This document shows, piece after piece, positions 4,999-9,435 of a stretch of 37,741 bases of DNA. Under the pieces are notes generated by a model. That model had not been told where the DNA came from. It was given only the letters and a program-made list of their open reading frames with translations, and searched no databases. Each line of letters opens with the position of its first letter. The stretch's first letter is position 1. Position numbers and translations under genes: made by a program. This DNA is from a virus (lineage: Duplodnaviria; Heunggongvirae; Uroviricota; Caudoviricetes), in IMG/VR virus record IMGVR_UViG_2541047834_000001. One strand, given 5' to 3'.

Positions 4999-5001
4999 TA
5001 T

Positions 5002-5153
5002 CAGCCCTCCCATATCTCGTTATCGTTGGCCACATCGCGAGCTTCTTTGCTGACGAAAGCCCACTTAATGCCTTCCTGTAAGGTGCGGAACTTCCAGCTC
5101 ATGAATCCGCATGCAGTAACGCAGTACCAACCGTTGATGATTTTCCACTGCAT
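5002..5153 (-). CDS. Hypothetical small Cys/Trp-containing protein (50 aa), first gene of leftward operon
   Basis: MQWKIINGWYCVTACGFMSWKF...; GAGG RBS 8 nt upstream; not in supplied ORF track (under size cutoff). Confidence 0.35.
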
Positions 5154-5172
5154 AACTTGTTACCTCGGTCTG

Positions 5173-5187
5173 TTACCGTTGAGGTAA
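5173..5187. promoter_or_regulatory. Operator-like palindrome TTACC-GTTGA-GGTAA (leftward early promoter region)
   Basis: Perfect half-sites; adjacent extra TTACC at 5160. Confidence 0.5.
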
Positions 5188-5234
5188 TAATTATGCGTAT
5201 TTGGTTTGGTGTCAATAGATATGAGTTAAAAAAA

Positions 5235-5249
5235 TTACCCTTAAGGTAA
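5235..5249. promoter_or_regulatory. Operator-like palindrome ATTACC-CTTAA-GGTAAT
   Basis: Perfect 17-bp palindrome frame. Confidence 0.5.
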
Positions 5250-5261
5250 TTGCGCAGGCAA

Positions 5262-5286
5262 TAAAAAAGCCGCCAGAAGGCGGCTT
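5262..5286 (-). terminator. Rho-independent terminator downstream of the repressor gene
   Basis: GCCGCC-TTCT-GGCGGC hairpin followed by TTTTTT on the minus strand. Confidence 0.6.
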
Positions 5287-5306
5287 ACTTACTGAAAAAT
5301 ATGATT

Positions 5307-5891
5307 TTATTGTTTGTTTTTTTCGTTCTGGTTGATGACAAATTCAATGTAACTTTCGATCTTTGCTTTCTCGGTTTCGGGTAACAATGCGTAGCGCGAG
5401 CGGTCATAGTTGATGGTCGCAGGGTCGTGCGGGTGAATCAGTAATTCATAGCCGTGACGCCCGAATGCGGATGCAACATTCTCCAGGGTGGAAATGGAAA
5501 CGCTGACCTCATTGTTTAACAGGCGGCTGATTGTCACCTGGGCGACGCCGGATGCGCGGTGAAGTTTTCCCTGTGTTGAAAGGTCGCGGCTTTCGCTCAT
5601 CCAGCGTTCCAGGTTGTGAGCCGCCAGCTGACCAATGTCGCTTGGGCCGACAGGCTGAAAACCTTCCTGAGAAAGCGAGCGATCGATATCAAGCCAGTTA
5701 CGGGGTTTATTGGCGGCAGCTTCAATTTTTCGCGCAACCTGGTCGCCGATAACCTTCTTGCCAAGAGCCCAGCGGTTTACCAGATTTGCCTGAGTTCCAA
5801 GTTTTTCTGCCATCCGCGTCTGAACACCATTGAATTCACGGTCGATCAAGTCGTTGAGATTTTGCCTGCGGACGTCCTGGATACTTTTCAT
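5307..5891 (-). CDS. Putative immunity repressor with two HTH (XRE-like) domains
   Basis: 194 aa; two helix-turn-helix-like segments (TRMAEKLGTQANLVNRWALGKK and ASGVAQVTISRLLNNEVSVSISTLENVA); divergent from a Cro-like gene across an operator-rich intergenic region. Confidence 0.65.
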   Translation of the reverse strand: MKSIQDVRRQNLNDLIDREFNGVQTRMAEKLGTQANLVNRWALGKKVIGDQVARKIEAAANKPRNWLDIDRSLSQEGFQPVGPSDIGQLAAHNLERWMSESRDLSTQGKLHRASGVAQVTISRLLNNEVSVSISTLENVASAFGRHGYELLIHPHDPATINYDRSRYALLPETEKAKIESYIEFVINQNEKNKQ

Positions 5892-5946
5892 TTTCTGGAA
5901 AATCGCCTCATATATGAATCAGTAGATGATTCAATTTAAAGCAATA

Positions 5947-5999
5947 TTACCCAACAGGTAAATGCACCCCATAGGTAACTATCCTTGATTTTTGTTACC
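5947..5999. promoter_or_regulatory. Divergent promoter/operator region between repressor and cro-like gene
   Basis: TTACC-CAACA-GGTAA (5947-5961) plus inverted repeat CCCATAGGTAAC / GTTACCTTATGGG (5969-6006). Confidence 0.5.
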
Positions 6000-6045
6000 T
6001 TATGGGTGAATATTTATTATCTGAAATAAATATCAGGCAATAGCT

Positions 6046-6276
6046 ATGAGCGATAACGGACATTTCGATTTCAAAAAGCACTGGCTTGCACTTACTCCGG
6101 ATGAGCGTGAAGCCTTCGCACAGGAAGCCGGAACGACGAGTCATTATATCCAGACTCACTTAACAGGTAAGCGCAAAATGCCAGGTAAAGTATTGATGAA
6201 TGGGCTTTTTAAAGCCTGTAAAACAAGACAATGGTTGCGCTCAAAAGCAGAACTGGCATACTTCTTCTACTCATGA
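6046..6276 (+). CDS. Cro / YdaS-like HTH regulator
   Basis: 76 aa; TSHYIQTHLTGKRKMPGKVL resembles the Cro/YdaS family; divergent to the repressor. Confidence 0.65.
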   Translation: MSDNGHFDFKKHWLALTPDEREAFAQEAGTTSHYIQTHLTGKRKMPGKVLMNGLFKACKTRQWLRSKAELAYFFYS

Positions 6277-6298
6277 TATCCAGCTACAACCCTCTGTA

Positions 6299-6320
6299 GA
6301 CCGCCACCCGGCGGTCTTTT
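6299..6320 (+). terminator. Rho-independent terminator (tR1-like) after cro-like gene
   Basis: GACCGCC-ACCC-GGCGGTC hairpin followed by TTTT. Confidence 0.65.
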
Positions 6321-6331
6321 CATATCTATTC

Positions 6332-6346
6332 GTACCTCAAAGGTAA
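6332..6346. promoter_or_regulatory. Operator-like palindrome gTACC-TCAAA-GGTAA
   Basis: One mismatch; just after cro terminator. Confidence 0.4.
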
Positions 6347-6426
6347 TAAAAAACCAAATGTGGTTGATCTTTTTTTTGTGTCAGCACAAAATGACCGTAA
6401 TCCCAATACCAATAACAGGGCTTACC

Positions 6427-6627
6427 ATGGAAATCATTACACGTATTGATGCCGCAAAGCGCGGACTTAAACGCTACTACACCGGAAAAACATGTAAGCA
6501 CGGACATGACAGTGAACGCTGGGTTTACAACGGACACTGTGTTGAGTGCACCATGGAATCAAACCGTCGTATCAGGGCAGAGATTAAGCAGATCATGATT
6601 AATTCCTCCCCACAACATTCAAGCTGA
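6427..6627 (+). CDS. Small zinc-finger-like protein (CxxH...CxxC)
   Basis: MEIITRIDAAKRGLKRYYTGKTCKHGHDSERWVYNGHCVEC...; ATG at 6427; in-frame ORF extends upstream to 6358. Confidence 0.5.
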   Translation: MEIITRIDAAKRGLKRYYTGKTCKHGHDSERWVYNGHCVECTMESNRRIRAEIKQIMINSSPQHSS

Positions 6628-6642
6628 TAGCGGAGATTAATC

Positions 6643-7458
6643 ATGAGCAGACATGCAACAGATTGGGCCTGGGAGACAGATCCAGGTAGCTCGTCATTAA
6701 AGCTCATACTGCTCTCGATGGCTGACAGAGCCGATGAATATAACCTCTGCTACCCCAGCATAGAACGCCTCGTTAAAGACACTTGCCTGAATAAAAAAAC
6801 CGTGCAGGCCGGACTTATATCGCTCATGAAAATGGGGCTTATTTCAGATACCGGAGAGAGAAAGGGAGCGACGAAAAGAGTGCGGGTTTTCTCTCTTAAT
6901 ATAACCAAAAACGGGAACATTAAAGGCAACCGGGAGGGGGGTAATGAACCCGAAAACGGTAATGTTCCCGAAAACGGGAATATACCCAAAAACGGGATGT
7001 TGAATGATCCCAAAAACGGGATGTTGAATGATCCCAAAAACGGGATCCAGAACCAGTCATATAACCAGTCATTTAACCAAGAGAGGGAGAGCAGGACAAA
7101 AACCGGGGATTCTGTGCCTCATGACCCAGGCGCAAACAACGCCGTGATGAATAACTTTGTTCCTCCTGGTGGGCCAGGGCAATTAGGCAAATTTGTCATG
7201 CATGAACAATGGCAGCCATCAGATGACTTTCTTCGGAAAAGCTCATTGCAGGGGATCTACCTGGACAGTCTGCCAACGGCACAGGAACTTGCAGAGTTCA
7301 GAATTTACTGGATGGCTGAGGGTAAGGCATACCATCAGGCACAGTGGGAGCAGAAGCTGGCAAGGCGGCTGCAGATTAGCAGACAGAAGCAATCAACATT
7401 ACCTGATAACAACGTTCCGCACTGGAACAGCCCTGAAGCATGGGAGGATTTCTTGTGA
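6643..7458 (+). CDS. Replication initiation protein, lambda O-like (iteron-containing)
   Basis: 271 aa directly upstream of and coupled to the P-like gene; embedded iteron-like repeats; GGAG RBS. Confidence 0.65.
   Translation: MSRHATDWAWETDPGSSSLKLILLSMADRADEYNLCYPSIERLVKDTCLNKKTVQAGLISLMKMGLISDTGERKGATKRVRVFSLNITKNGNIKGNREGGNEPENGNVPENGNIPKNGMLNDPKNGMLNDPKNGIQNQSYNQSFNQERESRTKTGDSVPHDPGANNAVMNNFVPPGGPGQLGKFVMHEQWQPSDDFLRKSSLQGIYLDSLPTAQELAEFRIYWMAEGKAYHQAQWEQKLARRLQISRQKQSTLPDNNVPHWNSPEAWEDFL
6904..7045. repeat. Iteron-like direct repeats CC(C/A)(A/G)AAAACGGGA, six copies; candidate replication origin
   Basis: Copies at about 6904, 6948, 6967, 6985, 7009, 7033; last two within a perfect 24-bp tandem duplication (6996-7019 / 7020-7043). 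Confidence 0.6.
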
Positions 7459-8240
7459 ACAACGTTTTTACCGCGATACAAAACCGTGACGGAGAAGCCC
7501 TTTCTCGCATGTCAGGTTATGAGCATCAGTACACCAACAATGACAACGTAGTGAACATGTCAGCAGAGAGGCTTGTTGATGCCCTTTTCAAACAGCTGAA
7601 ACAACTGTTTCCGGCGGCAGTGGTAACCAACCTGAAGACGCCAGAGCAGGAAGTTGCTGCAAAACAGCAGTGGATTGCTGCGTTTGCTGAAGGGGGGATC
7701 CGAACCCGTGAACAGGTTTCTGCTGGTATGCGCCACGCTCGCGCCAGTGAATCTCCGTTCTGGCCGTCGCCAGGGCAATTTATCAAGTGGTGCAAAGACA
7801 GCAAGATGGTTCTTGGCGTCACCATTGACGATGTGATGGCGGAGTTTCACCGGTACAGCAAGGAAAAAAGTTTATATCCTGGTGGTCCCGAAAGATTCCC
7901 GTGGCGACATCCGGTTATGTACTGGGTCGTATGTGATACCCGCCGCGCAATGTATCAGCGCCAGCTTAGCGAGATTGAGGTTGAGAAACACGCGCGCAGG
8001 CTGCTCGATGATTGGGCGAAAAAGGTGGCTTCCGGACAGCAGATACCCGATCCGGTGATCAGCATACAGGCAAAGCCAGAACCCATGAGTACGCCTCCGG
8101 ACACAGGGAGAGACGTTTACCATCCACCAGGGCGAAGTTTCGGGTGTATGCCTAACGCCGCCACCCTGGGGGGAATAACACCGGCGCAGTGGCTGATGGA
8201 GGAATACAGGCGGGGAAAGGCGGCAGGATTTATCAAGTAA
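7440..8240 (+). CDS. Replication protein P-like (DnaB helicase loader)
   Basis: QQWIAAFAEGGIRTREQVSAGMRHARASESPFWPSPGQFIKWCKD parallels lambda P (RRQWVLAFRENGITTMEQVNAGMRVARRQNRPFLPSPGQFVAWCRE); alternative GTG start at 7455 overlaps the O-like stop. Confidence 0.85.
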   Translation: MGGFLVNNVFTAIQNRDGEALSRMSGYEHQYTNNDNVVNMSAERLVDALFKQLKQLFPAAVVTNLKTPEQEVAAKQQWIAAFAEGGIRTREQVSAGMRHARASESPFWPSPGQFIKWCKDSKMVLGVTIDDVMAEFHRYSKEKSLYPGGPERFPWRHPVMYWVVCDTRRAMYQRQLSEIEVEKHARRLLDDWAKKVASGQQIPDPVISIQAKPEPMSTPPDTGRDVYHPPGRSFGCMPNAATLGGITPAQWLMEEYRRGKAAGFIK

Positions 8241-8245
8241 TACCA

Positions 8246-8270
8246 GCGCGATAGCGCATTTTTTTACGCC
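8246..8270 (+). terminator. Weak terminator-like hairpin after P-like gene
   Basis: GCGC-GATA-GCGC followed by ATTTTTTTA; short stem. Confidence 0.35.
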
Positions 8271-8277
8271 CACGTAA

Positions 8278-8292
8278 TTACCTAGTGGGTAA
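8278..8292. promoter_or_regulatory. Operator-like palindrome ATTACC-TAGTG-GGTAAT
   Basis: Perfect half-sites; downstream of P-like gene. Confidence 0.5.
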
Positions 8293-8339
8293 TAAAATGT
8301 TCTAACGTCTATTGATTTCATGTCTTATGTGGTTTTTAA

Positions 8340-8354
8340 TTACCTAAGGGGTAA
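8340..8354. promoter_or_regulatory. Operator-like palindrome ATTACC-TAAGG-GGTAA
   Basis: Directly upstream of ATG 8358; preceded by TATGTGGTTTTTAA. Confidence 0.5.
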
Positions 8355-8357
8355 ATC

Positions 8358-8702
8358 ATGAGAAAACAGATACAGGCTCTTGGTCGGCTCAAAACAGGCC
8401 AGATGAACAAAACAGAATCTGCGTATTGCCAGCACCTTGAGCAGCGTAAACGTGCAGGGGAAGTCGCCTGGTATCGGTTCGAGGGTATCAAGCTGCGGCT
8501 GGCTGACAACACGTTTTATACGCCCGATTTCGCTGTGATGCTCGCCACCGGAGAGATGGAACTGCACGAAGTGAAAGGTTTCTGGACCGACGACGCCAGG
8601 GTGAAAACCAAAGTCGCCGCAGATCAGTATCCGTTCCGAATCATCGGGGTAACGGTTAAACCAAAGAAAGCAGGTGGTGGCTGGAATATCGAAGAGTTCT
8701 GA
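8358..8702 (+). CDS. Phage protein, DUF1064-like
   Basis: 114-aa ORF with AGGGG RBS; assignment from recalled family pattern, unverified. Confidence 0.5.
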   Translation: MRKQIQALGRLKTGQMNKTESAYCQHLEQRKRAGEVAWYRFEGIKLRLADNTFYTPDFAVMLATGEMELHEVKGFWTDDARVKTKVAADQYPFRIIGVTVKPKKAGGGWNIEEF

Positions 8703-8763
8703 ATCGACGATCTTTTTAGTTATCAATGTAATCAATAAGTTATGTGGATAAGCGAGGGTAAAG

Positions 8764-9435
8764 ATGGAAAGTAATATCAAAGGGTTAGTTTCCGCCGGGC
8801 ATGAGATGGCTTCGGAACTGAAAGCAGAATGTGGTGCCGTTGATATGCGTAGTGTGGCAAAGCTGATCAGCGATTTGGCAACGCAACTGGAAGTGCAACT
8901 GGTGCGTGCTAATGCGCTGGCGGCGGAGAATGCGAGACTGAAGGCCGGGGCTATGTATTTCTCATATGGCTCTGAATTTAGTTTCGAGTGTCACAAAACT
9001 GCTGAGGAGGCTATCGCTGCTGCTGAGGCTGCAATTGACGACTATAGAGGCGATGCTTGCGATGGATGGAGCGAAGAGGTCGAAAGCATTTGCTGGGGGG
9101 TAATTATTCAGCAGGCAACCAAGGTCGGTGAACGCAAGAAGAGGAAATGCGACAGAGTATCACCATGGATTGAAAGAGTTTGTGATTATGAGCTTCGACC
9201 TAATGTCGAAACCCCAGCCACCGATGCTTTCCTGTCTGAAGTGCGGGCGCAGGGGGTGGATGCTGCCATAGAAGCTGCAAAAAATCTGGTGGCCCAAGAA
9301 TATGAGTATAAGGATTTCAAAGCGGCGCAGAGTGATTGCTGTATGCACCCTGGTTCAGACCTGGTAGGGAAGGTTGAAATGACTGAGTGGTTAGTTGACT
9401 TTGCTGCCCAGCTTCGCAAAGGAGGCAACCAGTGA
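8764..9435 (+). CDS. Hypothetical protein (223 aa)
   Basis: ORF with GAGGG RBS; Cys-containing, Ala/Glu-rich. Confidence 0.55.
   Translation: MESNIKGLVSAGHEMASELKAECGAVDMRSVAKLISDLATQLEVQLVRANALAAENARLKAGAMYFSYGSEFSFECHKTAEEAIAAAEAAIDDYRGDACDGWSEEVESICWGVIIQQATKVGERKKRKCDRVSPWIERVCDYELRPNVETPATDAFLSEVRAQGVDAAIEAAKNLVAQEYEYKDFKAAQSDCCMHPGSDLVGKVEMTEWLVDFAAQLRKGGNQ

Follow-up and report, generated by a model that had tools for sequence, protein, structure and literature searches.

The 37,741-nucleotide stretch of DNA analysed here (IMG/VR record IMGVR_UViG_2541047834_000001; its whole length is called the window) belongs to a temperate podophage of E. coli that resembles phiV10 (genus Uetakevirus), and we followed up a cluster of direct repeats within its replication initiator gene. 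Over this gene (6643-7458) the window is 97-99% identical to phiv142-3, EC.W1-9, PAS61 and phiV10, in the last of which the counterpart, gp43, is annotated 'replication initiation protein'. An earlier reading made by a model from the letters alone (the sequence-only reading) had taken the gene for an O-like replication gene and its repeats for the iterons of an origin. On the basis of the sequence comparisons set out below, we consider it very likely that the repeats at 6904-7045 serve as the iterons of a phage origin of lambda type, located within the phage's own initiator gene, in an initiator family other than that of lambda O.

The initiator gene and its repeats

The initiator, of 271 amino acids (aa), was assigned to PHROG 1032 ('replication initiation protein', E 1.5e-108) and carries two Pfam domains, HTH_36 at aa 18-67 (E 1.8e-10) and DnaT (PF17948) at aa 184-252 (E 1.1e-15), with the array placed between the parts of the gene that encode them. 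The second of these matches the C-terminal domain of E. coli DnaT (PDB 9zbt, 6aep, 4ou6 and 2ru8, E ~1e-20), which is labelled a DNA-binding domain in Pfam and a single-stranded-DNA-binding domain in RefSeq annotation. The earlier term 'O-like' is thus apt by architecture and PHROG family only: in Pfam the protein is HTH_36 plus DnaT and not Phage_rep_O, and neither the N-terminal domain (HTH_36 only) nor the C-terminal domain (DnaT-like) falls into the families that define lambda O, Pfam Phage_rep_O and PHROG 277. Modelling of the initiator with AlphaFold2 from the single sequence gave nothing usable (mean pLDDT 37.7). The features of the gene are as follows, all on the + strand.

6643 to 7458, +: replication initiator gene, 271 aa, holding the entire candidate origin (open reading frame, Pfam, PHROG)
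6643 to 6903, +: coding part of the N-terminal HTH_36 (winged-helix-type) domain, aa 1-87, the presumed iteron binder (Pfam; 40-87% identity across 80 loci of other species)
6904 to 6916, +: iteron 1, ACCAAAAACGGGA, degenerate, 45 bp 5' of iteron 2 and within the least stable 30-mer of the gene (repeat and pattern search, stability)
6949 to 6961, +: iteron 2, CCCGAAAACGGTA, in the 18-bp unit (Tandem Repeats Finder, pattern search)
6967 to 6979, +: iteron 3, CCCGAAAACGGGA, whose flanks give TTCCCG-AAAA-CGGGAA, with 6-bp dyad arms (5 + 1 inner pair) (repeat and pattern search, dyad analysis)
6985 to 6997, +: iteron 4, CCCAAAAACGGGA, first copy of the 24-bp unit (Tandem Repeats Finder, pattern search)
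7009 to 7021, +: iteron 5, GATCCCAAAAACGGGATG, with 5-bp dyad arms ATCCC/GGGAT and a GATC site within (Tandem Repeats Finder, pattern search, dyad analysis)
7033 to 7045, +: iteron 6, GATCCCAAAAACGGGATC, with 6-bp dyad arms, the last iteron, whose place beside the 12-mers is kept in 63 loci (pattern search, dyad analysis, locus comparison)
7049 to 7084, +: three 12-mers, AGAACCAGTCAT (7049-7060), ATAACCAGTCAT (7061-7072) and TTAACCAAGAGA (7073-7084), 35% GC (repeats, composition)
7075 to 7110, +: strand-asymmetric tract, 81% purine on the top strand, with a degenerate iteron-like half site ACAAAAACCGGGGA (7096-7109) inside (composition)
7180 to 7437, +: coding part of the DnaT-like C-terminal domain, aa 180-265 (Pfam PF17948, PDB matches)

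The repeats are real, in that direct reading, Tandem Repeats Finder, repeat finding and a pattern search all agree. Searching the 37.7-kb window for CCMRAAAACGGKA with at most one mismatch returned six matches, all on the + strand and all at the starts listed above; outside 6904-7045 the pattern had no match, and the window contains no second iteron cluster. The expected number of chance matches is 0.39, and none of 100 dinucleotide-preserving shuffles reached six. The array comprises 142 bp, with all repeats on one strand and the consensus CC(C/A)(A/G)AAAACGG(G/T)A, spaced start to start by 45, 18, 18, 24 and 24 bp; an 18-bp unit spans 6940-6995. Tandem Repeats Finder, one of the checks that the sequence-only reading had proposed, confirmed the array and also the perfect 24-bp tandem duplication, the unit being 100% identical across 2.6 copies (6985-7046). 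Three other details of that reading needed adjustment: the count of six copies stood, while copy 2 (6949) ends in GGTA rather than GGGA and copy 1 (6904) starts with ACC, and AACCAGTCAT does occur twice after the iterons, starting at 7051 and 7063 rather than at 7056, as part of the three 12-mers at 7049-7084. All six iterons share the codon frame of the 271-aa open reading frame and encode T/P-K/E-N-G, so that the predicted repetitive peptide (...NGNVPENGNIPKNGMLNDPKNGMLNDPKNG...) is indeed present.

Each iteron has a central tract of four to five A residues, about which the arms form dyads of 5-6 bp in iterons 3, 5 and 6 and of 2-3 bp in iterons 1, 2 and 4; with their flanks, individual units read, for example, GATCCC-AAAAAC-GGGATC and TTCCCG-AAAA-CGGGAA. 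An AA is kept 5-6 nucleotides 5' of the core, giving a site of ~19 bp, AAnnnnCCCrAAAACGGkA. GATC (Dam) sites occur at 7006, 7030 and 7044, in or beside the last three iterons, as compared to a window average of one per 286 bp. The GATC context AATGATCCC is present in the enterobacterial relatives (GF-2 and the loci L091, L094, L134 and L143) and absent from the Vibrio and Acinetobacter versions, and an influence of Dam or SeqA on the candidate origin is possible.

The iteron count ranged from four to nine in a set of 78 phage and prophage loci whose N-terminal domains are 99-100% identical, near-identical E. coli loci that served for copy-number statistics and not as a measure of diversity; gain or loss took place in whole 18-bp or 24-bp units, in frame. 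The AACCAGTCAT boxes likewise vary from one to three copies in close relatives; as compared to the window, BP9 is 24 bp shorter and phiV10 12 bp longer, and the lengths of homologues in the protein database (279, 287, 291 and 311 aa) follow the same pattern. The initiator gene was found in 424 of 5426 complete E. coli genomes (~8%). The BP9 record (GenBank PP488543.1, 'Escherichia phage BP9', locus L002) is of 138 kb, is classified as Vequintavirus and has a phiV10-type repressor/initiator/P early region at its right end (133.4-137.2 kb), which gives the impression of a chimeric assembly or of a mixed lysate.

Constraint on the repeats across related initiators

One could envision that the repeats are a feature of the protein only, a slippage-prone low-complexity PKNG/PENG linker, and that the origin lies elsewhere, for example in AT-rich intergenic DNA. 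All six window copies are indeed read in the same frame, the encoded peptide is rich in Pro, Gly and Asn as linkers typically are, copy number shifts by in-frame units, and the least stable DNA of the neighbourhood is intergenic (5910-6036 and 8290-8370). A comparison that bears on this account used 80 loci from one-genome-per-species contigs, picked by peptide patterns of the N-terminal domain only (N-terminal identity 40-87%), with hosts that include Vibrio, Pseudoalteromonas, Marinomonas, Acinetobacter, Providencia, Yersinia, Edwardsiella, Burkholderiaceae and Sphingomonadales. In the linker zones of these loci (40.7 kb), CCC[AG]AAAACGG had 92 coding-strand matches, as compared to three on the + strand and one on the - strand in the 211 kb outside them, counts that are inflated by tandem copies and common ancestry, the matches not being independent events. 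A motif so specific in strand and position (92 vs 4 matches) is not what a peptide repeat predicts. Nor is its distribution over reading frames: the 92 matches fell 63, 23 and 6 into frames 1, 2 and 3, encoding unrelated peptides. GF-2, the PPompW prophage and Vibrio H20 read the motif CCCAAAAACGG as TQKRD, YTQKRE and DPKTE, respectively, and not as PKNG; in the first two the frame is ACC CAA AAA CGG GA, giving TQKR(D/E), and in H20 it is GAC CCA AAA ACG GAA, giving DPKTE. Lambda iterons, too, are read in three frames.

Codon choice points the same way. In 77 P[KE]NG linker peptides, with the same genes as background, codon use was as follows.

Pro, CCC: 77/77, background 15%
Lys, AAA: 57/57, background 65%
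Glu, GAA: 20/20, background 61%
Asn, AAC: 74/77, background 55%

Synonymous positions are essentially invariant, and the dyad symmetry of each unit would be meaningless for a peptide. The frame and codon pattern holds across many genera despite the non-independence of the matches and bears the mark of selection on the DNA sequence, and we conclude from these comparisons that the repeats are a DNA-level element rather than a peptide repeat. With the motif also covarying with the N-terminal domain, and not with linker length or the C-terminal domain (see below), we hold the protein-only account to be very improbable. The repetitive peptide is, by the same comparisons, a by-product tolerated in the interdomain linker, and is encoded because the sites lie there. 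In lambda, small in-frame deletions in the corresponding region can leave O functional (PMC6022878). The sequence-only reading had described origin and linker as co-encoded, and this description is borne out by relatives in which the same DNA gives PKNG, xQKR or PKT peptides.

The next question is with which part of the initiator the motif travels. Edwardsiella GF-2, Vibrio H20, Acinetobacter AP22 and the E. coli PPompW prophage share with the window only the N-terminal domain (50%, 44%, 40% and 35% identity, respectively), and in all four the motif stands directly after that domain, partly in other frames. What follows it differs: in GF-2 the N-terminal domain and motif are joined to a lambda-O-type C-terminal domain (PHROG 277/2357, aa 159-279), accompanied by its P gene; in H20 they are joined to another C-terminal domain; and in AP22 a DnaB-type helicase gene adjoins. 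Conversely, in the uetakeviruses SPN1S, ZX5 and Tyrion a DnaT-like C-terminal domain is retained alongside unrelated N-terminal domains, and the motif is absent from these phages; their linkers hold other repeats, namely GTCCGC/GCGGAC dyads, GTAACGC/GCGTTAC and three copies of GGATCAG. Since the same C-terminal domain with other N-terminal domains has other repeats, the type of repeat follows the N-terminal DNA-binding domain, as cognate sites would. We thus conclude from the sequence comparisons that the motif is co-inherited with the N-terminal domain and not with the C-terminal domain.

Within the family the iteron itself varies (TCCCAAAAACGGGA, GTCCCAACGTTGGGAC, GTACCAATATTGGTAC), and fully palindromic versions are found in Acinetobacter (GTCCCAACGTTGGGAC and GTACCAATATTGGTAC) and in GF-2 (TCCCAAAATTGGGA). 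Acinetobacter prophages L116, L119 and L133 (gene positions ~295-445) carry the variants AGTCCCAAC(A/G)WYGGRAC or AGTACCAACATTGGAAC in several frames. The Acinetobacter variants suggest, at the level of sequence, a co-evolution of N-terminal domain and iteron specificity. At the junction of linker and C-terminal domain we also observed a box, AAAACCCC(A/T)C(A/T)C (peptide KTPH or KTPL), common to initiators that have different N-terminal domains and the same DnaT-like C-terminal domain (~1430-1445 in L088, ~1393-1408 in L089, ~1648-1660 in L090 and ~1990-2005 in L007). To judge from this distribution, the AAAACCCC box is probably a recombination joint for swapping modules that consist of an N-terminal domain plus its origin.

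In a further account the array would have nothing to do with the initiator; it would instead be bound by a different protein, whether of the host or one of packaging or recombination, or would act as a structured RNA or as an antisense terminator element. Weak terminator-like hairpins on the minus strand (7036-7017 and 7012-6993) could be cited in its favour, as could the GATC within three units, which could bind SeqA or be a Dam target. The hairpins have only six pairs, three of them G-C, and together with two minus-strand open reading frames (6750-7037 and 6920-7072), all in or over the array, they were rejected as real features, since they appear to arise incidentally from the dyad repeats and from the A-tract, which is a T-run on the minus strand. 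An Rfam scan of 5000-9000 gave no match at or near the array, the GATC is missing in the Vibrio and Acinetobacter versions, and in hosts from Enterobacteriaceae to Sphingomonadales the motif is found strictly together with a single family of DNA-binding domain, which is difficult to reconcile with a host factor. This account is in our estimation highly unlikely.

The flanking segment, a proposed mechanism and the early operon

If the array is an origin, one would expect an opening element beside it. The three 12-mers at 7049-7084 are a candidate DNA-unwinding or secondary-binding element, and their counterparts are found widely: in 63 diverse loci, three (A/G)GAAYC-N4-CA boxes spaced by 12 and 13 bp lie 3' of the last iteron, the third in a frame other than that of the first two, and an A-rich tract usually stands 3' of the boxes in relatives (63 loci; H20). 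The element ranges over Enterobacteriaceae, Acinetobacter, Vibrio and Pseudoalteromonas and travels with the N-terminal domain whatever the C-terminal domain or helicase-loading partner. The half site at 7096-7109, which in phiV10 and BP9 reads ACAAAAAACGGGGA, may mean that the putative unwinding segment is bracketed by binding sites. Nearest-neighbour calculation places the gene's two least stable 30-mers on either side of the array, at 6895-6924 (z 2.3) and at 7056-7085 (z 1.8). It is possible, if rather doubtful, that the three boxes are a sequence-specific second recognition element of the initiator family (e.g., for single-strand capture), which can be likened to DnaA-trios or RK2 13-mers, and that copy-number polymorphism then tunes replication strength or incompatibility between co-resident prophages.

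In the model that we propose, dimers of the HTH_36 domain would bind each ~19-bp dyad unit and form, by analogy with lambda, an O-some-like complex. This complex would destabilise the adjoining 12-mer and purine-rich segment (7049-7110), which torsional stress, aided by transcription from the early promoter, would open as in lambda. To judge from domain homology and gene order, the DnaT-like domain would then recruit the P-like loader bound to host DnaB, and it may also hold single-stranded DNA. Unwinding is the least secure part of the model because the segment is less unstable than nearby intergenic DNA and has no high-AT tract.

Several points weigh against reading the array as an origin of this kind. 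The two intergenic stretches named above are less stable than 7049-7110, and no strongly AT-rich tract comparable to the 39-bp region of lambda adjoins the iterons, the 12-mers having only 35% GC. The window copies share a single frame, so the frame argument leans on relatives, where the counts are subject to the non-independence already described. An hhalign alignment of the N-terminal domain to lambda O aa 1-125 gave a probability of 8.5% (E 0.004), too weak to claim direct homology, and we rejected it; the sole and indirect link is that both proteins match PHROG 678 and 345, which suggests, from profile matches, a remote relation. Finally, our literature search, which covered mainly open-access papers, returned no description of this origin or iteron sequence and no binding or firing experiment for the family, experimental characterisation of the GF-2-type origins (PHROG 391, 1032 and 6643) being apparently nonexistent. 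On the other side, the computational tests of the iteron and origin reading came out as it had predicted with regard to array placement, DNA-level conservation, linkage to the N-terminal domain and dyads.

The absence of a strong AT-rich tract also bears on a third account, in which the repeats are true sites of the N-terminal domain but act primarily in regulation, through roadblock autoregulation of the distal initiator and P message, titration or handcuffing, or prophage incompatibility, with strand opening elsewhere. Control functions are known for plasmid iterons, a protein bound to the array, with the promoter on one side and the P-like gene on the other, could impede transcription, and a polymorphism of four to nine copies is what one would expect of a tunable control element. 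Nevertheless, in lambda, the only well-studied analogue, this arrangement is what serves as origin (PMC7466680, PMC6022878). In 63 loci the array is followed directly by the conserved 12/13-mer boxes and by an A-rich or purine-asymmetric tract, which together resemble the half of an origin where opening takes place, and a second iteron cluster is absent from the window. We therefore regard a primarily regulatory array as improbable, while a regulatory role of the sites may coexist with origin function.

The genes and signals around the initiator are as follows.

5307 to 5891, -: divergent two-HTH repressor gene (YdaS-like at aa 21-61, weak; HTH_3 at aa 106-147)
5992 to 6020, +: candidate rightward early promoter TTGTTA-17-TATTAT, upstream of the cro/cII-like gene and pointing towards the origin (consensus scan only, opposite the divergent repressor; weak)
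6046 to 6276, +: cro/cII-like gene (open reading frame downstream of the candidate promoter)
6298 to 6317, +: terminator-like hairpin in a tR1-like position between early promoter and initiator gene (terminator scan; the phiV10 annotation has a putative rho-independent terminator here)
7440 to 8240, +: lambda-P-like helicase-loader gene, overlapping the end of the initiator gene (Pfam Phage_lambda_P PF06992, E 1.5e-56; PHROG 109, E 2.4e-92)

Judged by this gene order, the layout is that of a lambdoid rightward early operon, and presumed partners of the DnaT-like domain, from its homology, are the P-like loader, single-stranded DNA or both. Two HTH regions in the repressor are unusual as compared to single-HTH CI repressors, and the phiV10 annotation agrees with them. 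Just 5' of the initiator gene lies a small conserved open reading frame (6427-6627, +; PHROG 1081, of unknown function; phiV10 gp42) with a Cys/His-rich motif, CKHGH...HCVEC, weakly like endonuclease VII-type zinc modules.

Lambda-type organisation is already known; what is new is its occurrence in this initiator family, where it is apparently undescribed, so that the lambda paradigm is repeated in concept and the finding is useful rather than surprising. The probable origin of phiV10-type (Uetakevirus) phages and of an E. coli prophage module is narrowed to a 200-bp segment, and an iteron consensus with flanking boxes is defined for initiators with the PHROG 1032/6643/391 N-terminal domain in Gamma-, Beta- and Alphaproteobacteria. 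Phage engineering, phagemid and vector design, the reading of coverage on prophage induction, and annotation could all make use of these, the genes being at present labelled 'primosomal protein', 'DnaT-like' or 'pyocin large subunit'. The repeats also offer a clean natural case in which a binding-site constraint on DNA overrides codon choice and shapes a protein linker.

Comparison with known systems

The lambda iterons are 18-bp hyphenated inverted repeats that each bind one O dimer (PMC6022878), and the candidate origin resembles ori-lambda in its place midway through the initiator gene, where the linker joins a DNA-binding N-terminal domain to a loader-binding C-terminal domain. In both, direct repeats form a hyphenated dyad around an A-tract (TCCCTCAAAACGAGGGA in lambda, ATCCCAAAAACGGGAT here; the lambda iteron sequence ATCCCTCAAAACGAGGGA and its variants were used for comparison), with a repeat spacing of 18-24 bp. 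The AT-rich region of lambda has purines distributed asymmetrically between the strands (PMC5043065), and here, too, the side away from the promoter has a purine-asymmetric tract. A lambda-P homologue follows in a rightward early operon, and iteron number differs between relatives (PMC7466680). The differences are in the parts: here the N-terminal domain is HTH_36 and not Phage_rep_O, with weak profile similarity, and the C-terminal domain is DnaT-like and not that of lambda O; the iteron arms are 5-7 bp as compared to ~7-8 bp in lambda, with a unit core of ~14-19 bp; all window iterons share one frame; and sequence-conserved 12/13-mer GAAYC boxes replace the plain 39-bp high-AT tract.

Iterons of plasmids are usually found outside the rep gene, without dyad symmetry and with DnaA boxes nearby. 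The iteron plasmids RK2, P1, F, pSC101 and R6K are like the present locus in having repeated initiator sites with an adjoining unwinding element of sequence-specific 13-mers, but here the units are intragenic and dyad-symmetric, and a search of 6000-8400 for the DnaA box (TTWTNCACA) found none. Plasmid iterons bind Rep monomers, and for the RK2 13-mers both the exact sequence and the number matter (PMC5043065).

The origins of the Shiga toxin (Stx) phages 933W and P27 have six iterons inside the O gene as compared to four in lambda, the extra ones having come from duplication and being needed for efficient replication (PMC7466680); the window likewise has six, with a recent tandem duplication. 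The Stx-phage origins, however, belong to the true lambda-O family and are nearly identical to that of lambda, whereas both the initiator family and the iteron sequence differ here.

GF-2 gp62 (PHROG 391) and the PHROG 1032/6643 initiators share the N-terminal domain family (50% identity), the 24-bp spacing and the GAAYC boxes. GF-2 has three copies of the iteron core TCCCAAAATTGGGA plus one CCCAAAAACGGGA in another frame, and differs in that its module of N-terminal domain and origin sits on a lambda-O-type C-terminal domain, a combination that shows modular exchange at the linker.

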